DNA from: Escherichia phage radambza
Length of the DNA stretch: 64,000 nucleotides
Direction: 5' to 3' (one strand)
Sequence record: MN850639.1
Of this stretch, positions 7,814 to 49,203 are shown one piece after another. The stretch's first letter is position 1. Each line of letters opens with the position of its first letter. The position numbers and the translations under genes are program-made. Under the pieces are notes generated by a model, which was not told the DNA's origin, did not search any database, and saw only the letters and a program-made list of their open reading frames with translations.

Positions 7814-8920
7814 TTAGTCAGCTTTAGCGTCAGCGCGAACATCTACCAGCAACTGAGGACGAGTACAGTATGGCAGCATGTAAGAGTGAGCTTCGAAGTC
7901 AATACCTTCGTCACGGTCTTTTTCGTATTCGAATACGTACAGTTCCTGACCAAGTGTATTTGCGTAACCCATCTTAGGACATGGACCATATGCAACTTCG
8001 AAGATGTTGTTAGCTTCACCCAGCATAGCTACGTTAGGGAAAGCATGACCAACACCAACAGTGTCTGCTACGCTGTCAATGCTAACCAGAGTGTGAACCT
8101 TACCACGCTTGTCTTTGAACTTACCGTTGTACTGGACAAACTTAACACCACCGTAGTAGAAGGTGTTCATATGAGCCTGAACGCCGTCAGTACCACCAGT
8201 TCTCAGAGAACCAGTAATCTGTTGCCAAGCCAGTGGGGTCTGCTGTGCAAGATAAGCGTCACGAATCTTAGGATGCTTAACCAGTTTGCTGAAGAATACA
8301 CGGTCAACAACTACGTGAATTTCTTCACCGTTGATTACAGTGCCAGTCTTAGCTTCGTCTTCCATGTGCATACGCAGTTCTTCAATAGAAGCGTCAATGT
8401 CAGCATTAGGGTTGTCAAGGTCGAAGTAAACAGTCTTCTTCTCAACGTCGAACTGCTTGTACAGGTCAGCGTACAGAGTACCACGAGCATCAACAACTTT
8501 ACCCTTCAGAGCTTGCATAAACAGGAACTCACGAGTAATATCGAACTTGGTACGAATCTTCATCAGCTTCTTAGCACGTACTACAGCTTCAGTAGTCAGT
8601 TCGTTTGCAGTGCCTGGCTGACGTACACCCTGAATTTCATCAGGAGTGATGCTTTCAACTTCTTTGAAGTACATCATTGGGAAGCTGATTTGACGAACAC
8701 GCTCAGGTGCGCTAGTCTCTGCTTTACGGCTATCACGGTCTACCGCATCAAGCAAGCTAACATCCCAATCAGTCAAGTCCATAAGGAAAGTAGTTTGGGT
8801 GATTGGTGCTGAACGGAACAGACCTAAGTTGGAAATATACCCATAAGTATTTGGGATAGACTGGACTTCACCAGTCAGGTCAGCAAGGAAAAATCTGCTT
8901 TTTTCAGAATTAGTCAACAT
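7814..8920 (-). CDS. major capsid protein
   Basis: 368 aa, ATG with GGAG SD; codon usage looks highly expressed; lambda-E-like order (protease, decoration, capsid). Confidence 0.85.
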   Translation of the reverse strand: MLTNSEKSRFFLADLTGEVQSIPNTYGYISNLGLFRSAPITQTTFLMDLTDWDVSLLDAVDRDSRKAETSAPERVRQISFPMMYFKEVESITPDEIQGVRQPGTANELTTEAVVRAKKLMKIRTKFDITREFLFMQALKGKVVDARGTLYADLYKQFDVEKKTVYFDLDNPNADIDASIEELRMHMEDEAKTGTVINGEEIHVVVDRVFFSKLVKHPKIRDAYLAQQTPLAWQQITGSLRTGGTDGVQAHMNTFYYGGVKFVQYNGKFKDKRGKVHTLVSIDSVADTVGVGHAFPNVAMLGEANNIFEVAYGPCPKMGYANTLGQELYVFEYEKDRDEGIDFEAHSYMLPYCTRPQLLVDVRADAKAD

Positions 8921-8953
8921 TGTAAAATTCTCCAGAATGTCTTATTATTGTTA

Positions 8954-9331
8954 TTACAGGCCAGTTGGTACGAAATCAATACCTTTAGCAGCCAGAGCTT
9001 TCTTGACTTCAGTAGCATCAACGCTTGATTCAAGAGTTAGCAGGTCTTTCAGTTCTGCATCACGGTGGATACCTACTACTTTCAACTGACCATGATAAGA
9101 CAGTTGCAGGTCTGCGTAGAAATTAACGATACATACAGAGTCTGCTTGGGCTTCTTCTCCAGCTTGTACCTTAGTACCATCTGCTTTCAGAACTTCACCT
9201 ACACGATACTCTGTAGATGCCTGTGGAGTGTACTCTTTACGAGAGTGGCCTGTTGGGGTAATCTGTTCCCAAAGAATGATATCATTCAGAGGTTCTCTGT
9301 TACCTAACTTAGTAAAACCTTGATATGCCAT
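8954..9331 (-). CDS. head decoration protein (putative)
   Basis: 125-aa ORF between protease/scaffold and capsid genes, as for lambda gpD. Confidence 0.45.
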   Translation of the reverse strand: MAYQGFTKLGNREPLNDIILWEQITPTGHSRKEYTPQASTEYRVGEVLKADGTKVQAGEEAQADSVCIVNFYADLQLSYHGQLKVVGIHRDAELKDLLTLESSVDATEVKKALAAKGIDFVPTGL

Positions 9332-9342
9332 TATTGTGTTCC

Positions 9343-10689
9343 TTATTTGATAAGAGATTTTAGAGCATTCTGGAGAGCCAGTTTGCGTTGTTCAGCGGTG
9401 TCTTCGGAAGCATTCTTAGCTGGTTCTTTTTCTTCTTCAACCAAATCAGCTTCGCCGTCATTACCCATTTCTTCCATAGCATTAGAATGTTCAAGAACAG
9501 CACCAGCAGTTTCTTTCAGCTTGGTAATTTCTGATTCTTTTTCTTCCATTGCAGAAGCATGGGACGCGATAGTTTCATTAAGTTTCTGGTTAGCACCTTC
9601 CATAGCATTCATAAACAGAACACTCAGAGGGTTATCAAGACCAGCACCTAAAATAGTCGTTGCAGCTTCTTTTGCATCAAACCCAAAAGCTTCAGCAGAA
9701 GCAGAAATCTTATTAGTCAAATCTGACAAAGCAGCTTCCTGTTCTTTAGCTTTCATTTGAGCAACCTGAAGACGCAAAGCTTCTAGTTCTTGCTTTTCTT
9801 GTTCAGTCATTTCTTCACCTGAATTGTTAACGTTTAAACTTACAGGAGCCTCTTCAGAACCTTGTAAGTAATTTAAGAAATCATCTTGAGACATGATTGA
9901 GTTAATTAAACCAAGTTCAAGAGCTTCCTGAGCAGAATAAACATTCGCCTCAGTATTCTTTACAGCTTCTTCAGAGAGATTACGAGATTCGGCTACAAAA
10001 CCTGTAAAGGTTGCGTAGGTATCATTAATTCTCTTTTGAAGTCTTTCTTTGCTTTCTTCTGAAAGTGCTTGGAATGGTGAACCCATACCTTTAAATTCAC
10101 CAGCTTTAATGACGTTAATTGTTACGCCATTCTTTTCAAATGCCTTAGTTAATTCCTGATGAACCATGATTACACCGATAGAACCAACATCTGCATCTGG
10201 TGATGCAATAATTTCTTCAGCAGAAGATGCAAGAGCGTATGCAGCGGAACAAGCGAACTCATCTACATAAGCAATAATTTTCTTTTGGCCTCTTGAAGCC
10301 ATAATGTGACGTGCTAATTCAAAGCAACCTGAAGCTTCACCACCACCGGAATCAATATGCAGAACAATAGTCTTGATTGACTCATCTGCTAAAGCTTCGT
10401 CAAAGCCTCTACGCAAACCTTCATAAGAGCTTAATCCACCTGTACACATTGCATCAATGAATGTCATACGATGGGTTAAACCACCCATAATAGGGATAAT
10501 AGCAATGTCATCTTTTACTTTTAAAAGACTTCTTGCTTCACCTTTGGGTTTATCAAAGTTTACTGCTGCTTGGACATCACCCAGCAATCTGTTATTCACA
10601 TAAGTTGCTGCTGAGTGAGCTAATGATTCAGTGGCTAGTAAAGGTTGGTTGAATAATCTATCAGCAAGTCTGAAGATATTCGAACTCAT
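9343..10689 (-). CDS. prohead protease (S49/ClpP family) fused to scaffold-like C-terminal domain
   Basis: 448 aa; TIVLHIDSGGGEASG peptidase motif; C-terminal half coiled-coil, Glu/Lys/Ala-rich. Confidence 0.85.
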   Translation of the reverse strand: MSSNIFRLADRLFNQPLLATESLAHSAATYVNNRLLGDVQAAVNFDKPKGEARSLLKVKDDIAIIPIMGGLTHRMTFIDAMCTGGLSSYEGLRRGFDEALADESIKTIVLHIDSGGGEASGCFELARHIMASRGQKKIIAYVDEFACSAAYALASSAEEIIASPDADVGSIGVIMVHQELTKAFEKNGVTINVIKAGEFKGMGSPFQALSEESKERLQKRINDTYATFTGFVAESRNLSEEAVKNTEANVYSAQEALELGLINSIMSQDDFLNYLQGSEEAPVSLNVNNSGEEMTEQEKQELEALRLQVAQMKAKEQEAALSDLTNKISASAEAFGFDAKEAATTILGAGLDNPLSVLFMNAMEGANQKLNETIASHASAMEEKESEITKLKETAGAVLEHSNAMEEMGNDGEADLVEEEKEPAKNASEDTAEQRKLALQNALKSLIK

Positions 10690-32215: not shown

Positions 32216-32464
32216 TTAGTTAGTGCCTTCTTTGTCGTAGTACAGGGAGACAATTTTTTCACCCCAGTAGTGGTATGTATAACCCTCTTTGAGAGCTTCC
32301 TGTTTTGTTTCTTTCCAGAATTCATCAGAGGGGTTGTAGTCACTGATGGTCTGGCTGATAAGGCCTTTCACCATTTCAAAGGCGTTATCAGTACCTACAA
32401 GGTCAAATTTAACGTCCAGAGAGTAGAAGCCAAATTCGTTAACAGTTGCGCGGATAGTAGCCAT
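32216..32464 (-). CDS. small hypothetical protein (cassette gene 1)
   Basis: 82 aa; ATG preceded by the conserved leader. Confidence 0.55.
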   Translation of the reverse strand: MATIRATVNEFGFYSLDVKFDLVGTDNAFEMVKGLISQTISDYNPSDEFWKETKQEALKEGYTYHYWGEKIVSLYYDKEGTN

Positions 32465-32569
32465 TTTTGAATCTCCAGTTTAGGAAGTTGATTAAGGGTT
32501 TTATTTAGTGGGGAAGGTCATTCCCTCCCCGTTGATTGACAATTTACAAACTTTTGATTGTCTCGTCAA
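32465..32569 (-). promoter_or_regulatory. conserved promoter/leader cassette, type A
   Basis: Minus strand TTGACG-17nt-TAAATT, leader hairpin GGGGAGGG-aatga-CCTTCCCC (G-U pair), then GGAGATTCAAAAATG. Confidence 0.5.
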
Positions 32570-33119
32570 TATCTTTTTCAATATCTTTTAAAGTTTTTTC
32601 TAAGTTCTTGATATTGAAAGATAAGCCTTCCCCCAGTGTCTTAGAGTAACCGCTAGGACGTGAGTCATAGAGTTCGATTTCTTCCACTTCGAAGAGGCTA
32701 ACCAACTCACCGCTTACACTGTAAGCCATTGAAACAGTATTTACAGGGGCTTTATAGAACTTGTTTAAAGACTTGATAGAACGCTCGTAAGCCATTTTAT
32801 AGCCATTTAAAAGGTCTTTAACGTGGTTACGAACGTTTTTACACTCATCTAAGTAAATCTCTAAGAATAACGGTAATAATTCTGCTACAGCTTGCATAAA
32901 GTGAGAGACTACAACGGTTGCAACATTACGACGATGGATATAATAAGCCCCGTTTTCTGATTTGGTGATGGTTGCAAAGTGTACACCGTTGCAGCGGAAT
33001 TCATAGGTATCTTTAACAGGCTTAGACATTACAGCATTTGAGCGAATGTAGTTGATAGCTCGAAATTTGTTCATTTTTGAATCTCCTAGTTTAAGGACTT
33101 TGTTTAGTGGGGAGGTCAT
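32544..33119 (-). CDS. hypothetical protein (cassette gene 2)
   Basis: 191 aa; ATG preceded by conserved leader. Confidence 0.55.
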   Translation of the reverse strand: MTSPLNKVLKLGDSKMNKFRAINYIRSNAVMSKPVKDTYEFRCNGVHFATITKSENGAYYIHRRNVATVVVSHFMQAVAELLPLFLEIYLDECKNVRNHVKDLLNGYKMAYERSIKSLNKFYKAPVNTVSMAYSVSGELVSLFEVEEIELYDSRPSGYSKTLGEGLSFNIKNLEKTLKDIEKDIDETIKSL

Positions 33120-33166
33120 TACCTCCCGTTGATTAGTAATTTACTTGTTTTGATATCTGATTGCAA
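33120..33166 (-). promoter_or_regulatory. conserved promoter/leader cassette, type A variant
   Basis: TTGCAA-17nt-TAAATT, hairpin GGGGAGGT-cattac-CTCCC with stem changes that keep pairing. Confidence 0.5.
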
Positions 33167-33295
33167 GCAATTTTTTAAGTTTATCTATAAAGAATCTTTT
33201 AAGTTAATCCCTTTTAGATAAACCCCCTCGAACAAATCTACCAATGTCAAGGGGCGTTGTCAATACTTTTTTGAAAGTTTTTTGTAAGTTATTGA

Positions 33296-33637
33296 TTAAC
33301 TGATGAATATTTTTTCAGGTTTTACATAGCTGATACGCTGACTTTTTAGCAGGTCATCCCAGATTAACGCGGCGATATGGGCATAACCGGATTCACGTAA
33401 TAACTTCATCGTTTTACATCTCGTTTCAAATCGGGTTGCGTAGAACTCGCTGTTTAAAGTCGTTTTCTTCCCTTCATTGTCTACATGGATAATCTGCATC
33501 ACTTGAAAGGGGCTTGTGTCCTCGCCTTTGTTCCACTGTTCAAAGTATTTTAGGCACTGCATAGGCGACATCTTATCACTAACCTGAGTTGACCAAGATG
33601 AACCCTCTTTATCAGTAATTACGGTTACATAAGCCAT
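33296..33637 (-). CDS. hypothetical protein (cassette gene 3)
   Basis: ORF-track start at 33682 trimmed to ATG at 33635-33637 (MAYVTVITDK...) set by the conserved leader. Confidence 0.55.
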   Translation of the reverse strand: MAYVTVITDKEGSSWSTQVSDKMSPMQCLKYFEQWNKGEDTSPFQVMQIIHVDNEGKKTTLNSEFYATRFETRCKTMKLLRESGYAHIAALIWDDLLKSQRISYVKPEKIFIS

Positions 33638-33730
33638 TTTTTGAATCTCCAGTTTAGGATTTTGTTTAGTGGGGAAGGTCATTCCCTCCCCGTTGATGTG
33701 TAATTTACAGATTTTTATCAGGCTTGTCTA
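33638..33730 (-). promoter_or_regulatory. conserved promoter/leader cassette, type A
   Basis: TAGACA-17nt-TAAATT, hairpin, conserved SD context. Confidence 0.5.
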
Positions 33731-33961
33731 GTCTTTTTCTATAATTATTTCATATTGACCGTCTACACTATCGAAATAGATACCATCTTCATCTTCTGTC
33801 TTAAAGTAACATTGTATGTCATCACTGGCGGGATAGTCTTGTCTTGCTATCTGGCAAACTTGAATAGCATTTTCTTTACTTCCTGTAAACTCCTCAAGCC
33901 CTTTAAAATCACATGAATGGCCATTACAAATTGAGAGGATGAGATAAACGGTTGTTAGCAT
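33728..33961 (-). CDS. small protein with hydrophobic N-terminus (possible signal peptide)
   Basis: 77 aa, MLTTVYLILSICNGHSC...; no conserved leader; preceded by hairpin GCCCC-tacaa-GGGGC at 33980-33994. Confidence 0.45.
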   Translation of the reverse strand: MLTTVYLILSICNGHSCDFKGLEEFTGSKENAIQVCQIARQDYPASDDIQCYFKTEDEDGIYFDSVDGQYEIIIEKD

Positions 33962-34027
33962 GATTTAAGCCCTCTAAAAGCCCCTACAAGGGGCTAATCA
34001 GTGTTTATAAGGTGATTGTGTAGGTTT

Positions 34028-34570
34028 TTAGAAAAAGCTCTTTAAATCCTCTTCTGCGATGTTTCCCGTTAGTGTGTCCATGATGTCACAAAAAACCTGA
34101 ATACTGTCCGACTGTTGGACACTTTTAGCAAGAAGCTCCAGAGACTCATCAAGATAATTTAAATTTGGGTTATCCAATGAAGGAAGACAAAAAGGCGAAT
34201 ACATAGCGTTAAACTCTGTTACGTAAACCTTTTTAATCCAATTTAAATCGAAGTATTCTGTAAAACTTGCTACGCCAGACATATTATCACAAGAATAATC
34301 GTCATTTAGGTCATCCTCTGGGATATCAAGTTCTAAGATAACAATATTTTGGGTTTTCATCTGGAAAGCGGCCGTAATAGTGGCATTACCTAACGCTTGC
34401 TGGATACCTTCAGAGATTATCTCTTCCTCATCGTCGCCATAGATTTTATTTTCTGGGTACACGTAAAAATTGCCGTCCATATCCGAACAATTCCATGCAC
34501 CTGATGGCTTGTCACCGTTATTAATCAGGTTGAGGAAATTTTCTTGGGTAGTTCCGTGATAGCATTTCAT
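34028..34570 (-). CDS. acidic hypothetical protein (cassette gene 4)
   Basis: 180 aa; ATG preceded by conserved leader. Confidence 0.55.
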   Translation of the reverse strand: MKCYHGTTQENFLNLINNGDKPSGAWNCSDMDGNFYVYPENKIYGDDEEEIISEGIQQALGNATITAAFQMKTQNIVILELDIPEDDLNDDYSCDNMSGVASFTEYFDLNWIKKVYVTEFNAMYSPFCLPSLDNPNLNYLDESLELLAKSVQQSDSIQVFCDIMDTLTGNIAEEDLKSFF

Positions 34571-34652
34571 TTTTGAATCTCCTAGTTTAAGGATTGAGTG
34601 ATTAAGCTCTTTATCTGGGGCTTAAGATATCAACTTCCAAGCCCCCTGTAAA
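34571..34652 (-). promoter_or_regulatory. conserved promoter/leader cassette, type B
   Basis: TTTACA-17nt-TATCTT with hairpin GGGGCTT...AAGCCCC overlapping the spacer. Confidence 0.45.
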
Positions 34653-34657
34653 GTACT

Positions 34658-34861
34658 TTATTTGTTATTTTTGACAACTTTTAAAACTGCAAGATAACCT
34701 AAGCAATAAGAATCACCGAAGAGAGTCCTACCCATGAAAGAGTCCTCTTTGATATCCTTTGCAGTGACAGTTTTCTCTACGCCGTGGGAAAGGACTACAT
34801 CACCAACTTTAATATCTTTGATGTGAGTTGTTTCAATGTGTAAGCCGTTAATAATAGCCAT
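34658..34861 (-). CDS. small hypothetical protein (cassette gene 5)
   Basis: 67 aa; conserved leader. Confidence 0.5.
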   Translation of the reverse strand: MAIINGLHIETTHIKDIKVGDVVLSHGVEKTVTAKDIKEDSFMGRTLFGDSYCLGYLAVLKVVKNNK

Positions 34862-34952
34862 TTTAGAATCTCCAGTTTAGGATTTTATTTAGTGGGAAGG
34901 TCATCCCCTTCCCGTTGATGTGTAATTTAATCTATCTAAAAACCAGTGTCAA
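34862..34952 (-). promoter_or_regulatory. conserved promoter/leader cassette, type A
   Basis: TTGACA-17nt-TAAATT, hairpin GGGAAGGGG-atga-CCTTCCC. Confidence 0.5.
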
Positions 34953-34961
34953 CAAAATTTT

Positions 34962-35366
34962 TTAGAGTTCTGCATAAATTGCATCACAGACATCGCGAAA
35001 ATCATGATTTGTCAAATTACGTTGTAACCAAGTGGCAAAGAAATCAGCGATTGCAAAATTAGCGTCATACTCGACAGATAACCATACTTTCACGGCAAAT
35101 CGAAACATTTTTAAATCAAGCTCTTTATTCATTACCTTCGATTTGCCTAACATGTCAGCCATTTCATATTGCGCACCGTCTAGCGTGATACCTGCTGCAA
35201 CGTCAGCCAATGAACTTTTTACGTTTTCAACGTCTAAGATAACGCTTTGAATCTTTCCGATAATGTTGTGCAATGTTTCATCAGGCGCTGATGACGTCAT
35301 GATATTGATTCGATTAACGGTCAAGCGTGCTTTTAAGATTGATAATTCACGGTTATTAATAGCCAT
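34962..35366 (-). CDS. hypothetical protein (cassette gene 6)
   Basis: 134 aa; conserved leader. Confidence 0.55.
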   Translation of the reverse strand: MAINNRELSILKARLTVNRINIMTSSAPDETLHNIIGKIQSVILDVENVKSSLADVAAGITLDGAQYEMADMLGKSKVMNKELDLKMFRFAVKVWLSVEYDANFAIADFFATWLQRNLTNHDFRDVCDAIYAEL

Positions 35367-35446
35367 TTTAGAATCTCCAATTTAGGATTGAGTGGTAAAG
35401 TTCTTTATCTGGGGCTTACTTTATCGAACTATAAGCCCCCTGTAAA
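35367..35446 (-). promoter_or_regulatory. conserved promoter/leader cassette, type B
   Basis: TTTACA-17nt-TAAAGT embedded in hairpin GGGGCTTA...TAAGCCCC. Confidence 0.45.
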
Positions 35447-35451
35447 GTACT

Positions 35452-35724
35452 TTACACTAAATGCAGTTTTTTACCTTTTACTATAATGTAACTCGATGCA
35501 CTATTGCTTTGCACATCCTGATAAATTCTGCGCAAACGGCCTTCATAGTGTACTTTCCAACTGGTTGGAATCTTTTTACCGTATCCGGTAGCAGTTTTTT
35601 GGAGTCCTGCGACTTGCCAATCTAAGATATGTTGTTCAGCTTGTAAGTCTTCAAAGTGCATGACACCATCTACATAGTGACGTAGTGTGACATTTAAAGT
35701 GCGACCGTTGTTAGTAGTATACAT
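35452..35724 (-). CDS. small hypothetical protein (cassette gene 7)
   Basis: 90 aa; conserved leader. Confidence 0.5.
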   Translation of the reverse strand: MYTTNNGRTLNVTLRHYVDGVMHFEDLQAEQHILDWQVAGLQKTATGYGKKIPTSWKVHYEGRLRRIYQDVQSNSASSYIIVKGKKLHLV

Positions 35725-35816
35725 TTTAGAATCTCCAGTTTAGGACTTTATTTAGTGGGGAAGGTCATCCCCTTCCCGTTGATGTGTAATTTAATCTATC
35801 TAAAAATCAGTGTCAA
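35725..35816 (-). promoter_or_regulatory. conserved promoter/leader cassette, type A
   Basis: TTGACA-17nt-TAAATT, hairpin, SD. Confidence 0.5.
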
Positions 35817-36145
35817 GAATTTTGTTTTCGTTTGCTCAACTCTTGAACAATTACAGCATGATAGTCTTTCAAGTCACTGATGTTTAAAGCATTTATCAGA
35901 GAATTATAATCATCAACTAACTGAAAATCATCTTTGAAGATGTCACTTATCTGATAGGTTTTGGCTTTATATCTGAAGCTCATCTCTAGCCGCTTTATTT
36001 GCTCATCACTGAGACGTCCTAGAAAGCTTTCTACAAGGTTATTGCTAACCTGCTGTGTGATTGCCTTATTTGCTAGATTATAGGCTTTATATGCCTTATA
36101 TAGCGCGAAAATGGCAATGATTGCAGTGATACCAGTCATTAACAT
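35813..36145 (-). CDS. small membrane protein (N-terminal TM)
   Basis: 110 aa, MLMTGITAIIAIFALYKAY...; start overlaps upstream stop. Confidence 0.5.
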   Translation of the reverse strand: MLMTGITAIIAIFALYKAYKAYNLANKAITQQVSNNLVESFLGRLSDEQIKRLEMSFRYKAKTYQISDIFKDDFQLVDDYNSLINALNISDLKDYHAVIVQELSKRKQNS

Positions 36146-36435
36146 GGTGTTTCCTCTTTACGTGATACTTTGCCACTTACAGTTATCTCATAAGATTCTA
36201 ATAAATCGCTTTTAGACTTTACAGGGCTTTTAAAAGTATCATCGTAAATATTGACTTGCAATACAGGTTTTTTATACTCCCTGCAACTACTCCATAAGCA
36301 AATCACTACACGACGGCCTTTGATTTTTCCGTGTAACCATTCCATAACATCATGACTATTCCTTGATGTTTCAATGAAATCAATTTTATTAAGTAACTTG
36401 CTTAGATTTTCACGGACTTTATTTGATAGTTTCAT
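36139..36435 (-). CDS. small hypothetical protein (cassette gene 8)
   Basis: 98 aa; conserved leader. Confidence 0.5.
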   Translation of the reverse strand: MKLSNKVRENLSKLLNKIDFIETSRNSHDVMEWLHGKIKGRRVVICLWSSCREYKKPVLQVNIYDDTFKSPVKSKSDLLESYEITVSGKVSRKEETPC

Positions 36436-36515
36436 TTTTGAATCTCCAGTTTAGGATTTAGTGGTAAAGCTCTTTATCTGGGGCTTACTTTATCGAACTA
36501 TAAGCCCCTTGTAAA
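36436..36515 (-). promoter_or_regulatory. conserved promoter/leader cassette, type B
   Basis: TTTACA-17nt-TAAAGT embedded in hairpin; near-identical to the 35367-35446 element. Confidence 0.45.
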
Positions 36516-36523
36516 GTACTTTA

Positions 36524-36904
36524 TCAGTTAATTTTGAAGATTGTTACATAACCATCGCTCCCGATGATTTGTGATACTCCAGCTTTTTCTACTTGATAGC
36601 CCATATTTTCAAGATGATAAATAGCGTCATCGTAACCATATGCGCCACCCTGATAACGTCTCTTATCGCATCTTATCAGGTTTTTTCCACGCCCAGCAAG
36701 TGCATGTAGAATTGTTTTTTCACTTGAAAGAGTGCCATCTAACATGGTTGCCGTGTAATGGTTGATTTTATTCCCGTTGATATCATACTTAAAATTGAAC
36801 GAGTGAACAACAATCACATTACCTTTGAAATTTTCATCAAGTGACTTCTCCAGTACGCTACGAAAGTTGTCTTTGTTGATGAATTTAGGCGCACGATATT
36901 TCAT
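36524..36904 (-). CDS. hypothetical protein (cassette gene 9)
   Basis: 126 aa; conserved leader. Confidence 0.55.
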   Translation of the reverse strand: MKYRAPKFINKDNFRSVLEKSLDENFKGNVIVVHSFNFKYDINGNKINHYTATMLDGTLSSEKTILHALAGRGKNLIRCDKRRYQGGAYGYDDAIYHLENMGYQVEKAGVSQIIGSDGYVTIFKIN

Positions 36905-36997
36905 TTTTGAATCTCCAGTTTAGGACTTTATTTAGTGGGGAAGGTCATTCCCTCCCCGTTGATGCAAATACTAGATAACCCCGTTCAAAGAGTCAAG
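36905..36997 (-). promoter_or_regulatory. conserved promoter/leader cassette, type A
   Basis: TTGACT-18nt-TAGTAT, hairpin GGGGAGGG-aatga-CCTTCCCC, SD. Confidence 0.5.
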
Positions 36998-37123
36998 AAA
37001 AATTTTAAAAATATCTTTGGCAAAACTGTAATGAAACGGGCGCACACGACTACCACAAAACAGAACACAAATCAAGAATTATTTTTCAATCCGCTACAAA
37101 TTTTTCTCTTGACTTTTGGGGAG

Positions 37124-37352
37124 AGGGGGAGTAAGAGGGGGAGAGGGGTTGGTCTGGCTCTCTATAAAAACCTACCTGCACGATTCTAAAATGATTTTTC
37201 TTGCCCGACCTGAGCGGGGTCTGCACGTTTTGAAAATGAAAAAGCCCTTTGGAGATTACCTGCACAGTTTGAAAATGAATTTTCTCTTTGGAGTTCAAAA
37301 TTTTCTCTACAGATTTCTATACAGAACTCTACCTGCACAATCCTGAAATGAA
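37124..37352. repeat. intergenic repeat cluster: purine tract GGGGAGAGGGGGAG... and four copies of CTGCAC-N5-6-GAAAATGA
   Basis: Copies begin at 37176, 37221, 37260, 37333; two are followed by AAAAAGCCC. Confidence 0.6.
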
Positions 37353-37424
37353 AAAGCCCTCCTTACCTGAAAAATTTACCAGATAAGAAAGGCTTAGTCT
37401 ATTATGAATATTCTACAGAGTTTC

Positions 37425-38210
37425 TTAGTTCTTTGCGTCTAAGAAGGTAACTTCTGGTGAAGAGAAGATTGCCTCGATATCCTCATCAGTTCTTGCATAG
37501 ATATAAGCTTCTGCATCACTACCAAATGTTACAGCAATTCTGTGATTGCTCTTCGACAGGTGGGTAACTAGAGCGTTGCTTAGAGACATCTTTTCAACCG
37601 GAGGGTTACTTTGATGTATCTTACCTTTTCTTCGTCTGAAGAGGGTAACTGCATTATCCGTGAACACTGCTACACCTGCAAAGTATCCTGGCTCACAGTA
37701 GTTTTTCCAACCTGAGAGTAACTTGTGGTACATATCACCTTCATAGACATACAGATAGACATCTACACTCTTCATCACCTGATTGATGATAACTGTGACA
37801 GCTTGAGGGTCAAGTCCACCGATACCTGCACCAATCATAGGTAGACCGACTTTCTTCAACTGATTCACTTCACAGTATCTGTTAAGTTGCTTCAAAGATG
37901 ACTCTAAAGCACTGTATCGGGCATCTTTACCAGTCTTAAGCTGAGTGTAAAGGTTAGCTATACGACCTTGTTTTAAGCGTGCTACAGAGAAATTACCTAG
38001 TAAATTCTCACAAGGTTTGTGACCTATACCACCTGCATAGAGATAAACTTCTGTATCGGTCTCATATGCTTTTGGGTAAAGTTTAGAAATCTTGTCAGCG
38101 ATACCTGCACCCATTAGGTTCATGCAGTTACAACCATGACCAATGATGTCAAACTTACCTTTATCAAATGCAGCAAAGATATCACCATTGATGATTTTTA
38201 CAATACCCAT
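37425..38210 (-). CDS. macro domain protein (ADP-ribose binding/processing) with C-terminal extension
   Basis: 261 aa; N-terminal GDIF...DIIGHGCNCMNLMGAGIA and VGLPMIGAGIGGL are macro-domain glycine-rich motifs. Confidence 0.7.
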   Translation of the reverse strand: MGIVKIINGDIFAAFDKGKFDIIGHGCNCMNLMGAGIADKISKLYPKAYETDTEVYLYAGGIGHKPCENLLGNFSVARLKQGRIANLYTQLKTGKDARYSALESSLKQLNRYCEVNQLKKVGLPMIGAGIGGLDPQAVTVIINQVMKSVDVYLYVYEGDMYHKLLSGWKNYCEPGYFAGVAVFTDNAVTLFRRRKGKIHQSNPPVEKMSLSNALVTHLSKSNHRIAVTFGSDAEAYIYARTDEDIEAIFSSPEVTFLDAKN

Positions 38211-38411
38211 TTAACATCTCTCCCAAGATTCTTTATCCTCTGAAGGCTTTACACGTTGCCCTTCGTGGTCTACCCAGATGCACCCACAACCTTCACAGAT
38301 TACTGGCATTGCATAACCAGCTTTAAAGTCATCTTCAGTGATAAGACCTTTTAAGTCACCTGTATCACGTCCAAACATTTCTATAGAACAGTCTTTGCAG
38401 AAGTCAGCCAT
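38211..38411 (-). CDS. small Cys-rich (zinc-ribbon-like) protein
   Basis: 66 aa, CKDC ... CEGCGC. Confidence 0.45.
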   Translation of the reverse strand: MADFCKDCSIEMFGRDTGDLKGLITEDDFKAGYAMPVICEGCGCIWVDHEGQRVKPSEDKESWERC

Positions 38412-38423
38412 ATCATATACACC

Positions 38424-38651
38424 TTATAGTTCAGTTTCTCGTAATTCTTTGCCTTCATCATAGAAGCATTTATAGAATGTATCTATAGAAATTCTGGCAA
38501 AGGTAAGGTCTTCAAAGTATTCTTCTGGAGTTATCCCTGTAAAACTAAAGCTATCGAGATTGTAAAATGGTATCACTGTGTCGTTACTAACGAAAACACA
38601 TGCTGATGTCACTTCTCCAGTATCTTTATCAATTACCTCTAGAGCCTTCAT
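38424..38651 (-). CDS. small hypothetical protein
   Basis: 75-aa ORF. Confidence 0.4.
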   Translation of the reverse strand: MKALEVIDKDTGEVTSACVFVSNDTVIPFYNLDSFSFTGITPEEYFEDLTFARISIDTFYKCFYDEGKELRETEL

Positions 38652-39750: not shown

Positions 39751-39771
39751 AAAAAGGCTCCCGAAGGAGCC
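39751..39771 (-). terminator. rho-independent terminator (minus strand)
   Basis: Plus AAAAA then GGCTCC-cgaa-GGAGCC; hairpin then U-run on minus strand. Confidence 0.55.
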
Positions 39772-39783
39772 TGTATCTTAACC

Positions 39784-45712: not shown

Positions 45713-47509
45713 TTAAAGCTGCTTGTCAATATTATTTCGAATATCACCAAGAGTTGTGTAACCGAACTGCTCAGAGTCGCTAAAGACTAGACGCAAAGCA
45801 CAAGCTGGGTGTTCAAGTGCATCTGCAAAGCTCTGGAACCCATAGCCATCTACAGCTTTCAGATTTTCACCATCCCACATAGGTGCTACACCACCAAAGG
45901 CAGATTTCTTAACACCACTATCTGTTTTAGGGTCTTTTGCAAGCATAATCTCTTTACCACCAATGCTTGCAAGAGTTGCTTTGACAGCAAATGCAAAGGT
46001 GTCACGAGTCATGTACTGGTAAGTGTAAGAGCCTACACCAAACACTACGTTAGAGCTTGCAAAACCCATTTCATACAGACGCTTCAGGATTTCGTTTGCA
46101 CGTTCCAGCGTGATAGAGTCACCATAGATAAGGCCGATGTGCTCATCCAGTACCTTAAACCCTTTAGAGTTAATAGTCCCTCCGAAGATGTTGTACAGGG
46201 TCTTAATAGCCCCATCAATCTCAGCTACAGGACGTGTTACAACGTTTGCAGAACCAACCATATAAGCATTCTTCAACATCACCGTATCAGCAACTTCAAA
46301 GTCTTCTCTGTCAACAACCATTTCGTAGCCTTCTGACAGTAGCCATCCAGCAATACCATAGTTGATGTTTTCAAGCTTCATGTTCAGAACAGCATTCAAC
46401 ATTGTGTCACTAGCTTCCAGCTTGCTTAGGTGCTCATAATAAGCCTTCTTAGCACACTCTAAGTGGATTGCTTTATAGCCTGTGACAATATGTACAGGGT
46501 CTCCAGAGTCAGGGCGAATTACCAGCTTACCATCACGTTCCATAATTTCTTTACGAAGTGCTGGTAAGATTTCTGACACAGTTCTCCAGAAGTTATAAGT
46601 ATCTGAAACAATACTTGCAATACCAGTTGGGTAAGTTTCTGTTAAGAAACGACGGAAGGTTTGCAACTCACCTTTAAAGCGTCTTTCCTCTTCAATCAAT
46701 TCATTACCACCTTCCCAAGCAATGTTTGCACACATTACAGAGTGTTCAGTGGCTGGTACAGAACTACCAATATCAGAAATTGGGTAAGACTGTCCATAGA
46801 TGCGTTTAGCCGTGTATACAGCAGGGAAGCTATCAGTTCCTTTAAAGCTGGTTAAGTGACCTACAGCATTAAATGCGTCATCGGTAAAGCCGGACATACC
46901 ACGCATAGCAAAGTCATGGCACTGATAAGGTAAATGTAAGTCATTGTCGCAAGTAAGGTCAGTCCACTTCTTACAGATACGTTTGTAGTGCAATGCAATA
47001 GTTGCAATGGTGCAAGCCTTCCAAATCTCAGCAGAGAAAGCATCTTCCAGATAACCTGCTACCCAATGGAAACCTGAAACAGTGTTCTGGAAGACAATCA
47101 TTGGAACACGCATAGGAACAACTGTACCTTCTTCTACAGCGTATACTTCAACTGGTAGATAGCCTAAATCGTGAAGTGCTTCCCAATGCTCTCGACCTAT
47201 AGCATCTTTACCCAGAACACCATTCATGACTTCTAAGATTTCGTCAATTGCTTCTTTTTTATCACGTTCAAAGAAAGTGGCATTCCAGTGGTCTATCAAG
47301 TAATCTTTAACAAAACGTTGAATACCAAAAGCTACTACACCGTCAATTGCTAAGGGGCTGTTAAACCAGAGGCTGTTAAACCATTTGTCACTACGTGGTG
47401 TCAGGTTCAACATAAGATATTGCGTAGCATCTGGATACTGATATATATGTGATGCCTTGTAAGCATCTGCATTAAGACCTGCTGGTACTGCGTAAAGTGA
47501 CTTACTCAT
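45713..47509 (-). CDS. nicotinamide phosphoribosyltransferase family protein (Nampt/NadV-like; possibly a Namat-type NAD+ reconstitution enzyme)
   Basis: 598 aa; VIRPDSGDP and GLIYGDSIT motifs typical of the Nampt family. Confidence 0.85.
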   Translation of the reverse strand: MSKSLYAVPAGLNADAYKASHIYQYPDATQYLMLNLTPRSDKWFNSLWFNSPLAIDGVVAFGIQRFVKDYLIDHWNATFFERDKKEAIDEILEVMNGVLGKDAIGREHWEALHDLGYLPVEVYAVEEGTVVPMRVPMIVFQNTVSGFHWVAGYLEDAFSAEIWKACTIATIALHYKRICKKWTDLTCDNDLHLPYQCHDFAMRGMSGFTDDAFNAVGHLTSFKGTDSFPAVYTAKRIYGQSYPISDIGSSVPATEHSVMCANIAWEGGNELIEEERRFKGELQTFRRFLTETYPTGIASIVSDTYNFWRTVSEILPALRKEIMERDGKLVIRPDSGDPVHIVTGYKAIHLECAKKAYYEHLSKLEASDTMLNAVLNMKLENINYGIAGWLLSEGYEMVVDREDFEVADTVMLKNAYMVGSANVVTRPVAEIDGAIKTLYNIFGGTINSKGFKVLDEHIGLIYGDSITLERANEILKRLYEMGFASSNVVFGVGSYTYQYMTRDTFAFAVKATLASIGGKEIMLAKDPKTDSGVKKSAFGGVAPMWDGENLKAVDGYGFQSFADALEHPACALRLVFSDSEQFGYTTLGDIRNNIDKQL

Positions 47510-47531: not shown

Positions 47532-48023
47532 TTAGTTATGTCTTGCAAACTCACCATGAAGTTCTATTCGCTTTTTAATTACAGCTTCTTTTGCTTCTTC
47601 TACCGTTTTAAATCTTCCACAAAAGTATTCTTTATGGTAAAGCATGACTCTTGCTTTGTAAAGACCTGTTTGTTTACAAAAACTTACACCCTTCACACCA
47701 GTTTTATTATTCTTGTATATACCCCTATTCCTCTGATTTTGTGACTTTGTGCTAAGTCTTAAATTCTCCAACTTATTATTAGATTTATCAAGGTCTATGT
47801 GGTCTATCTCATATCCACTTGGCATCTCACCTCCAGACATAATCCATGCAATATTATGTGCATAGTACCTCTTCTTATTTATCTGGACTTGGATATAACC
47901 CTTCTTAGACCTTGTGCCAGCAACATTACCAGCAATAGCGGTATTGCAAAGGGTTACTTTCCAAATTAGTAAACCTGTCTCCGGTTCGTATATTAGGTAT
48001 TTTTCGAAGTAACCCTTATCCAT
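47532..48023 (-). CDS. HNH homing endonuclease with AP2-type DNA-binding domain
   Basis: 163 aa; YEPETGLLIWK N-terminus, IDHIDLDKSNNKLENLRL HNH motif, GVKGVSF...YKARV AP2-like domain; sits between the Nampt-like and Prs-like genes. Confidence 0.8.
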   Translation of the reverse strand: MDKGYFEKYLIYEPETGLLIWKVTLCNTAIAGNVAGTRSKKGYIQVQINKKRYYAHNIAWIMSGGEMPSGYEIDHIDLDKSNNKLENLRLSTKSQNQRNRGIYKNNKTGVKGVSFCKQTGLYKARVMLYHKEYFCGRFKTVEEAKEAVIKKRIELHGEFARHN

Positions 48024-48031
48024 TTTAATAC

Positions 48032-48913
48032 CTAATCCAAATTTGCTACAGTAACTTGACTGTAATGTGTTAAGCCACGTTCTTTAGCTTCGCCTAAAGA
48101 GTTTGTAGTGTAAATATGGTCGATACCATTGTCAAGAAGGTTTTCAACATCTTTAGAGAAGATACCATGTGTTACATAAAGCTCTACACGTTTTGCACCT
48201 GCTTCACGTAGGTGTTTAGCTGCCTCTACGAAGGTTCGACCACCATCACAGATATCATCAAGAATCATGACGGTTTTATCGGTCAAATCAACATCGTCAA
48301 GGATTTGCATACCAGTGATTTCTCCAGTCTTAAGATTTCGCACCTTAGACATTGTGATATATGGTTTATCAACCTCTTTAGCAGTCTCTGCAATCTTCTT
48401 AGAAGCACCTGCATCTGGGGCTACTAAGTAATCAATCAGAGGGTCATTTGCGTAATGGACTGCAATCTCCTTTTGAGGAATACTCTGGAAGCAATTGAAA
48501 AGGTTATCTGGAACGTAACTATGAGGGTCAACTGCACAGACTGCATCAAAACCCATTGCATTAACCTGTTGTGCAAACACTTTCAAAGCTGCTGCATCAC
48601 CTTTAAACATGTGACGGTCGTAACGTGCATTTGGCAAATAGTAAAAGATAGCAGTCTTCATAGCAAACTTATGAGGTACTAAATCATCAATTGCTTCTTT
48701 AGCCAGTGCCACAGCAAACAGTGTGTCTTTGTCATAACCCTTTACAATCATAACCACATTGTTAATAGATGATGCTGCATAAGCAGTAAAATCAACAAGC
48801 TCTTGTGAAAAGTGGCCACCAATCTCACCAGAAGGGAATTGGATGATGTTAAACTCTTCTTCATGAGTTCCTTTAGTCGGTGAATGAATTGTGACACGGA
48901 TAGATGTTTTCAT
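48032..48913 (-). CDS. ribose-phosphate pyrophosphokinase family protein (Prs-like; possibly an ADP-ribose pyrophosphokinase)
   Basis: VDPHS and ILDDICDGGRT PRPP-synthetase motifs; ORF-track TTG start trimmed to ATG at 48911-48913. Confidence 0.85.
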   Translation of the reverse strand: MKTSIRVTIHSPTKGTHEEEFNIIQFPSGEIGGHFSQELVDFTAYAASSINNVVMIVKGYDKDTLFAVALAKEAIDDLVPHKFAMKTAIFYYLPNARYDRHMFKGDAAALKVFAQQVNAMGFDAVCAVDPHSYVPDNLFNCFQSIPQKEIAVHYANDPLIDYLVAPDAGASKKIAETAKEVDKPYITMSKVRNLKTGEITGMQILDDVDLTDKTVMILDDICDGGRTFVEAAKHLREAGAKRVELYVTHGIFSKDVENLLDNGIDHIYTTNSLGEAKERGLTHYSQVTVANLD

Positions 48914-48924
48914 AGTTTTCTCTC

Positions 48925-49203
48925 TCAATCAAAAGTTACGTTTGTTACTGCCATTGCAGATTTGCATTTTACAGGGTCTACAACGTGGTAAAGTACACTA
49001 CAGTTACCTGTGCTGTCTGGTACAGGTTTTACCCATTGATGCTTTATAGTTGGCTCTCCTAAGTCTTTGTAAGAACCATCTGTAAAGTTGTTTACCATCT
49101 CAAGTGCAATTGGTTCTGGAACATGACCACGTATCATGTACATTTCACAACCATTACCACCTTCACTGACTAATGGTAAAATTTCCCACTTCTCTTTAGC
49201 CAT
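48925..49203 (-). CDS. hypothetical protein
   Basis: 92-aa ORF. Confidence 0.4.
   Translation of the reverse strand: MAKEKWEILPLVSEGGNGCEMYMIRGHVPEPIALEMVNNFTDGSYKDLGEPTIKHQWVKPVPDSTGNCSVLYHVVDPVKCKSAMAVTNVTFD

Follow-up and report, generated by a model that had tools for sequence, protein, structure and literature searches.

A two-domain macrodomain protein of Escherichia phage radambza as a candidate counter-defence hydrolase encoded apart from NARP1

A gene on the minus strand of the Escherichia phage radambza genome (37425..38210, ATG to TAA) encodes a 261-residue protein in which a macrodomain (residues 1-156; 37743..38210, minus strand) is followed by an orphan C-terminal domain (residues 157-261; 37428..37742, minus strand). 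All coordinates refer to the window, that is, the whole stretch of 64,000 nucleotides from sequence record MN850639.1 that was analyzed. The macrodomain belongs to a phage family that carries glutamine at the position of the catalytic lysine of DarG, and we tentatively propose, as a reading that stands somewhat below an even chance, that the protein is a counter-defence hydrolase of the Tk.4 (AdfM)/Adpp branch of the Poa1p/DarG/TARG1-like macrodomains, with the ADP-ribosyl-thymidine that DarT2 places on DNA as its main substrate. The C-terminal domain evolves fast and, together with an allele replacement at this gene, likely marks an undescribed protein-protein interface in phage-host conflict. 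The macro part itself comes from a known family, with annotated members in more than 200 genomes and functions published in 2025-2026. The literature searched contains no mention of the second domain, of its evolutionary behaviour, or of the combination of an unlinked macro gene with NARP1 in Felixounavirus.

Two preprints of 2025-2026 give different anti-defence roles to this one family of Gln-type phage macrodomains, namely, an anti-DarTG2 role for Tk.4/AdfM and a role as a NARP1-feeding phosphatase for Adpp. The gene tk.4, renamed adfM, is the single T4 gene required on a DarTG2 host (HIDEN-SEQ preprint, 10.1101/2025.11.20.689424), a role for which the evidence is genetic and comes from that one preprint. 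The AdfM of phage PhiKZ (gp104) has been shown biochemically to strip the DarT2-derived ADP-ribose from DNA, and mutation of its conserved Asn lowers the activity (Morgan et al.). NARP1, whose founding example is in phage Bas63, consists of two enzymes: Adps pyrophosphorylates ADP-ribose (ADPR), and Namat joins the product to nicotinamide to give NAD+. The RES-domain defence aRES converts NAD+ to nicotinamide and ADPR-1''-phosphate, which is unusable by NARP1; Adpp, tested for the protein of Vibrio phage Gary, dephosphorylates this compound (ADPR-1P) to ADPR and thereby restores NARP1 counter-defence against aRES (Osterman et al., 10.64898/2026.01.28.702374). In the same preprint, 15% of NARP1 phages were found to have a Macro-domain gene within two genes of the operon, and the table of NARP1-linked Macro genes includes no Escherichia or Salmonella phage. 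Felixounavirus would have been missed by this screen because only genes within two of NARP1 were screened.

The radambza region is 91-95% identical at the nucleotide level to Felix-O1-like phages (wV8, EC6, and SP22). The macro protein is 99% identical to that of the Felixounavirus LF82P3 and 96% identical to its ortholog gp95 in Bas63 (JohannRWettstein; bas63_0095), which is annotated as a "putative phosphatase". GenBank labels for the orthologs are "macro domain protein", "phosphatase", or "hypothetical protein", and PHROG 335 ("phosphatase") covers the entire protein with an E value of 7.5e-112. The ATG is preceded at 7 nt by a GGGAGAG run.

The original prediction had placed a macrodomain in the N-terminal ~145 residues. 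This identity is secure: Pfam Macro (PF01661) matches residues 25-141 with 32.4 bits against a gathering cut-off of 22; sequence matches in the PDB are to TARG1/OARD1 (1e-5), coronavirus Mac1 (2e-4), DarG (8e-4), and Poa1p (0.01); and PHROG and AlphaFold2 agree, with the domain reaching slightly further than had been proposed, to residue 156. The full-length AlphaFold2 model, computed with 31 homologues, has a mean pLDDT of 89.7 and a pTM of 0.89 and bears out a macro-like fold, in which residues 1-156 form the three-layer alpha/beta/alpha arrangement of macrodomains and are followed by a helix, six short strands, and a second helix. The motifs of the family are present as H25-G-C-N28-C, a first glycine-rich loop (M33-G-A-G36-I-A), N86-L-Y-T89-Q90, and a second glycine-rich loop (P124-x-I-G127-A-G-I-G-G-L-D134). 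Across the 31 homologues, N28, G34-A-G36, and G127-A-G-I-G-G132 are invariant or nearly so. Comparison of the active site with that of DarG thus recovered the Asn and the glycine loops but not the catalytic lysine: the "TK" motif, whose lysine is defined as catalytic in DarG and is needed for DarG activity (PMC8120803), corresponds to K80 in DarG and K84 in TARG1 but to T89-Q90 in radambza, and this Gln is invariant in the family. The best structural neighbours of the radambza macrodomain are the DarG macrodomains, and its score against the NCBIfam DarG equivalog is 47 bits against a cut-off of 250, with a match to profile positions 4-149 of 338. Judged from these sequence features, the domain would bind or hydrolyze an ADP-ribose derivative.

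To place the radambza macrodomain, we aligned it with T2 Tk.4, Brizo gp167 (an Adpp ortholog encoded between Adps and Namat), Gary Adpp, ten NARP1-associated macrodomains (Table S1 of the Osterman preprint), FADO gp033, PhiKZ gp104, TARG1, and database homologues. The phage macrodomains aligned all display H-x-C/A-N-C, a G-x-G loop, (N)-x-Y-(T/G)-Q, and a G-(A/C)-G-x-x-G-x-(D/N) loop; Gln occupies the DarG-Lys position in the radambza protein, T4 Tk.4, and every Adpp-like protein, and the Lys is retained by PhiKZ gp104 only. When scored against group HMMs, the radambza macrodomain reached 108 bits with the Tk.4 clade, 111 bits with all NARP1-associated macrodomains, and 54 bits with the tested Thalassavirus Adpp clade. 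T2 Tk.4, itself a member of the first group, scored 104 and 70 bits against the other two, and Gary Adpp, a member of both of these, scored 96 bits against the Tk.4 clade; the corresponding values for PhiKZ gp104 were 13, 43, and 4 bits. These cross-scores indicate that Tk.4, Adpp, and the Felix-type macrodomain form one family, of which PhiKZ AdfM and DarG are a more distant branch. By these profile scores, the radambza macrodomain is as close to the Tk.4 clade as to the NARP1-associated macrodomains. In a neighbour-joining tree, the two-domain proteins formed a clade (bootstrap 99) nested within a clade that also holds unannotated short macrodomains (bootstrap 100), and this larger clade was separate from the Tk.4 clade and the NARP1-associated clades, the deep nodes having bootstrap values of 8-33.

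The loop after the invariant Gln separates these proteins further. It is short in radambza (NLYTQLKTG-KDARY), and the short form (NLYTQxxxG) is common to Tk.4, the sister clade, and the radambza family; by contrast, it is aromatic and 3-7 residues longer (GQYNYG.. or GQYHW..) in every NARP1-associated macrodomain sampled and in the unlinked copy of FADO. The extended aromatic loop as a signature of NARP1-associated macrodomains is an observation of this analysis and not a published criterion. Against the DarG HMM, the radambza macrodomain scored 47 bits, compared with 30-36 bits for Tk.4 and 29-37 bits for Adpp. The short loop, the higher DarG HMM score, and the DarG structural neighbours lean toward the Tk.4/AdfM side, none of them decisively. 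Macrodomains of this type occur in 2,791 records of the phage collection, 993 of them from Escherichia phages and mostly T4-like, and Namat/Nampt-like genes occur in 2,028 phage records (191 Escherichia), many in Staphylococcus, Mycobacterium, and Listeria phages; the two are found across phages largely independently of each other. The nearest single-domain relatives have rIIB, helicase, and replication genes as neighbours, and no NARP1 gene lies within 10 kb of them. The unrelated phage contig L009 (94 kb) has, at 8716-10492, a single-domain macro gene of the sister clade (P0025) immediately behind an rIIB-like gene and ahead of a helicase gene, an arrangement that echoes the rII-to-macro neighbourhood of Ounavirinae.

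A Nampt-like/Prs-like pair had been predicted in the same genome, and Pfam confirmed both genes on the minus strand: Namat at 45713..47509 (ortholog of Bas63 gene 80), the second NARP1 enzyme, and Adps (Prs-like), the first, at 48032..48928 (ortholog of Bas63 gene 79). An HNH homing endonuclease gene (47532..48023, minus strand) is inserted between them; this insertion is present in phage dune and absent from the near-identical contig L005 and from Bas63, where genes 79 and 80 are adjacent. All genes from 49711 to 37425 are on the minus strand and are split into units by strong terminator-like hairpins with T-runs, located on that strand directly after Namat (45701-45678), after rIIB (41567-41544), and before the macro-containing unit (39755..39772). 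These three hairpins are near-perfect and GC-rich and have UACG/UUCG-type tetraloops followed by T-runs; the units that they mark off are NARP1, then rIIA-rIIB, and then the lysin gene, a PNK-like gene, and orf154. The macro unit runs from 39731 to 37425 and comprises two spanin genes, four small ORFs, and the macro gene as the seventh and last. An intrinsic terminator-like hairpin (37354..37395, minus strand), with a 17-bp stem and a T-run and starting 30 nt past the macro stop codon, closes this transcription unit. The macro gene therefore lies downstream of and outside the NARP1 unit, at a distance of ~14 genes, 7.5 kb, and three terminators from Namat.

Immediately upstream of the macro gene is a 66-residue Cys-rich ORF (CxxC...CxxC; 38211..38411, minus strand), to which macro translation is likely coupled because its TAA abuts the macro ATG. 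This ORF is kept in Felixounavirus but not in distant two-domain relatives; it was considered as a family-wide partner and rejected: the L005 copy is identical, L004 shows weak similarity, and the sequences in L003 and L008 are unrelated. The order Namat, rIIA, rIIB, ..., PNK-like gene, ..., macro is maintained even where the macro protein is only 33-42% identical, and every Ounavirinae relative examined has both NARP1 and a macro gene in conserved synteny. This synteny is not independent evidence of a functional link because all of the examples come from one lineage of Ounavirinae-like phages. In the NARP1-encoding Bacillus phage FADO, the macro gene is far from NARP1 and two genes from a COG3236 (NADAR-type) gene; this region (L007, 5195-6471), with gp033 encoding a long-loop Adpp-like macrodomain and gp035 the COG3236/NADAR-type protein, may be a small island of ADP-ribose-reversal genes. 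The annotations of dune 1-60 kb and Bas63 40-87 kb include no phage ADP-ribosyltransferase, NADAR, or Nudix gene.

The C-terminal part had been left unassigned in the original prediction, correctly so as judged by Pfam, profile search, and fold comparison. Pfam gave no match to residues 157-261, and an exhaustive profile search of 1.84 billion representatives returned for them only members of the two-domain family and repeat artefacts. The apparent matches to giant proteins (2,200-2,850 residues) and to a 376-residue repeat protein are artefacts because these sequences match dozens of unrelated Pfam families without a single significant stretch; they were rejected as relatives. In BFVD, the sole match to the domain was the Suspvirus ortholog, and a word-indexed homologue search with the C-terminal 105 residues alone gave no matches at all, the known family included. 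Modelled alone, the domain had a pLDDT of 78.6 (moderate confidence), and within the full-length model it was predicted with high confidence. The two-domain architecture is common to the Felixounavirus, Mooglevirus, Suspvirus, and Kolesnikvirus relatives, in which the only conserved C-terminal residues are P174, G179, and Y236. The net charge of the domain ranges from -6 to +4 across homologues and is not consistently basic; a role in binding DNA or other nucleic acids is therefore unsupported.

The two domains evolve at very different rates. In the same homologues, 36-50% identity is kept in the macro part and 12-18% in the C-terminal part; between radambza and Bas63 gp95, 9 of the 10 differences fall in the C-terminal part; and across genera with 58-88% identity in the flanking genes, identity is 76-81% in the macro part and 46-57% in the C-terminal part. 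The metagenomic Felixounavirus contig L005 provides the sharpest case. Its nine upstream proteins are 94-100% identical to those of radambza and its downstream DNA is 98.8% identical, but its macro protein is 42% identical (53% in the N-terminal part and 28% in the C-terminal part), and resemblance at the DNA level disappears between window positions 38068 and 37239. L005 thus carries an allele replacement confined to the macro gene, a gene-sized exchange of L005 10001-10780 for window 37239-38210, and the incoming allele belongs to a cluster (P0009) of 96 member sequences. A second hypervariable slot is found two genes upstream of the macro gene: the 75-residue ORF at 38424-38651 (minus strand) shares 97% identity with its L005 counterpart, 32% (over half the length) with that of dune, a phage otherwise ~95% identical, and 35% with that of L014, and is undetectable in L013.

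From this pattern we infer that the C-terminal domain is a non-catalytic interaction or targeting module. More specifically, it could grip a host defence protein, such as a DarT-like toxin or a RES NADase, or hide the enzyme from a host sensor, so that neutralization would be two-way, enzymatic and stoichiometric; we consider this specific form unlikely. If the binding-module reading is true, the allele swaps between nearly identical Felixounaviruses would record an ongoing arms race at the interface.

The non-coding stretch after the macro gene (36905-37424) is unusually long (520 nt), and an Rfam scan of it returned nothing meaningful. At 37221-37366, it contains three direct copies of a 34-nt element, CTGCAC..TTTGAAAATGAA..CTTTGGAG, which overlap the macro terminator, and positions 36985-37239 are 98.8% conserved in L005 despite the replaced neighbouring macro gene. 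In the small-gene cluster downstream of the macro gene (32454-36973), the intergenic regions hold 5-7 copies of a repeated cassette, in which, read on the plus strand, a conserved "TTTTTGAATCTCCAGTTTAGGA" element is followed by a GGGGAAGGTCATTCCCTCCCC hairpin; the "TTTTTGAATCTCCAGTTTAGGA" element is the reverse complement of the RBS/5'UTR of minus-strand genes. A second repeat family, of 91 nt, is found at 34570, 35364, and 36433. The cassette and the 91-nt repeats are probably repeated terminator, promoter, and leader modules.

The reading as an AdfM-like hydrolase is based on the loop signature, the DarG-like scores and structure, and the independent gene organization. In this mechanism, the two glycine-rich loops of the macro part would bind ADP-ribose, and the linkage at C1'' of the distal ribose would be cleaved without the DarG/TARG1 lysine, in an arrangement of Asn28 and Thr89-Gln90 as in Tk.4 and Adpp. 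The main substrate, following the proposal made for T4 Tk.4/AdfM, would be the ADP-ribosyl-thymidine that DarT2-type toxins create on single-stranded phage DNA; the free ADPR released could then be recycled by the NARP1 enzymes of the same phage, and the C-terminal domain would serve interaction or targeting. The earlier suggestion that the protein reverses host ADP-ribosylation has experimental precedent in the homologues Tk.4/AdfM and PhiKZ AdfM. The main objection to a DarG-like mechanism is that Gln90 replaces the catalytic lysine of DarG/TARG1; T4 Tk.4, with its anti-DarTG2 genetics, likewise has no Lys there. The AdfM-like assignment is further weakened by the distance to the one AdfM proven biochemically, PhiKZ gp104, which is of the Lys type and scores only 13-43 bits against the Tk.4-clade and all-NARP1 HMMs, by the position of the radambza protein outside the Tk.4 clade and equidistant from the NARP1-associated macrodomains, and by a C-terminal charge that lends no support to DNA binding. 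In PhageMaP, Bas63 knockouts were assayed on 33 defence systems, without DarTG or aRES, and g95 was not reported as a hit; this outcome is consistent with a gene that is important only against particular defences outside those 33.

A possible but somewhat doubtful alternative is that the protein acts like Adpp as an ADPR-1''-phosphate phosphatase, converting the aRES product to free ADPR for Adps and Namat and thus constituting an unlinked NARP1-AP. NARP1 is encoded in the genome and was discovered in the near-identical phage Bas63, Gary Adpp carries out exactly this reaction, aRES is present in E. coli, Klebsiella, and Enterobacter, and the synteny of NARP1 and macro gene holds throughout the Ounavirinae examined; the proteins are also homologous (27% identity to Brizo gp167, E 4e-14; 111 bits against the NARP1-associated HMM) and both have Gln, not Lys, at the DarG catalytic position. 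On the other side are the location of the macro gene outside the NARP1 operon, the missing long aromatic post-Gln loop, the score of just 54 bits against the tested Adpp clade, the origin of the synteny in a single lineage, and the occurrence of this macro type mostly in phages without Namat (e.g., 993 versus 191 Escherichia phage records). The idea that the macrodomain supplies ADP-ribose to the Nampt-like/Prs-like pair thus gains a homologue precedent from Adpp, and the specific link loses ground through organization, distribution, and loop; feeding is chemically plausible, as free ADPR released by any enzyme in a NARP1-encoding phage would enter the pathway. The AdfM-like and Adpp-like readings are not mutually exclusive, since in both reactions a leaving group would depart from C1'' of the distal ribose and the cross-scores between Tk.4 and Adpp are ~100 bits.

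It is rather improbable that the enzyme has another substrate and removes ADP-ribose from protein or RNA modified by other ADP-ribosyltransferase defences, or degrades 1''-linked ADPR signals such as His-ADPR of type II Thoeris. Many 1''-linked substrates are known for macrodomains of this class (PMC8120803 among the sources), Iyer et al. have argued that soluble ADPR derivatives are the main targets of phage macrodomains, His-ADPR is a signal bound by macrodomains, and RyR-domain enzymes, which degrade ADPR-based signals and so feed NARP1, provide a precedent; however, the two characterized Gln-type relatives point to DarT2-modified DNA and ADPR-1''-phosphate, and such an activity has been demonstrated for no Gln-type homologue of the family. 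The lack of the DarG/TARG1 lysine and the variability of the C-terminal domain would also suit a non-catalytic ADPR binder, in which the macrodomain sequesters an ADPR-derived molecule or docks on an ADP-ribosylated target and the C-terminal domain does the work. We regard this as very unlikely: Adpp, likewise of the Gln type, is catalytically active, and N28 and both glycine loops are family-invariant, as expected of an enzyme. Finally, the resemblance to Poa1p would agree with a housekeeping clean-up of ADPR-1''-phosphate from RNA repair of the Tpt1/KptA type in a phage that is tRNA-rich and has a PNK-like gene. Tpt1/KptA is an RNA 2'-phosphotransferase with the ADP-ribosyltransferase fold. 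In PhageMaP, Bas63 gp107 was conditionally important on E. coli S17-1 and was described as having "slight structural homology" to the NAD-binding domain of Tpt1/KptA, but its radambza ortholog (34028..34570, minus strand) has no sequence similarity to Tpt1/KptA in Pfam or the PDB and was rejected as such a protein. The PNK-like ORF has no Pfam match and no ligase that generates a 2'-phosphate was identified, which makes the RNA-repair explanation highly improbable.

Felixounaviruses combine a Gln-type macrodomain with an unlinked NARP1 and can be manipulated genetically through Bas63, where deletion methods and knockout libraries are available. If an unlinked NARP1-AP exists, the published 15% of NARP1 phages with Adpp is an underestimate; if neither the anti-defence nor the C-terminal interface readings hold, the gene is one more phage macrodomain.

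Among known systems, Poa1p and TARG1 (OARD1) are eukaryotic single-domain housekeeping enzymes, and K84 and D125 of TARG1 are Q90 and G131 in radambza. The radambza protein also differs from DarG and PhiKZ AdfM in having T89-Q90 in place of the "TK" catalytic lysine. The two-domain design of DarG would be functionally analogous to the double-action protein considered above, but the radambza C-terminal domain is unrelated to the DarT-binding domain of DarG, with no fold match. Gary Adpp is alike in belonging to the Gln-type phage macro family (27-28% identity) and in coming from a phage that encodes NARP1; however, Adpp is a single domain encoded between or beside Adps and Namat and has the longer aromatic loop (GQYHW/GQYNYG), whereas the radambza gene is 7.5 kb and three terminators from NARP1 and its product has the short loop and a second domain. 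T4 Tk.4 is a single domain of 155 residues, compared with which the radambza protein has the extra 105-residue C-terminal domain, a place in a separate clade, GGLD-P where Tk.4 has GKGNW, and an insertion at residues 55-66. The two nevertheless have in common that they are early-region phage macrodomains, 34-35% identical (E 1e-15), with identical HGCNC, NLYTQ plus short loop, and IGAGIG motifs and with Gln at the DarG Lys position.
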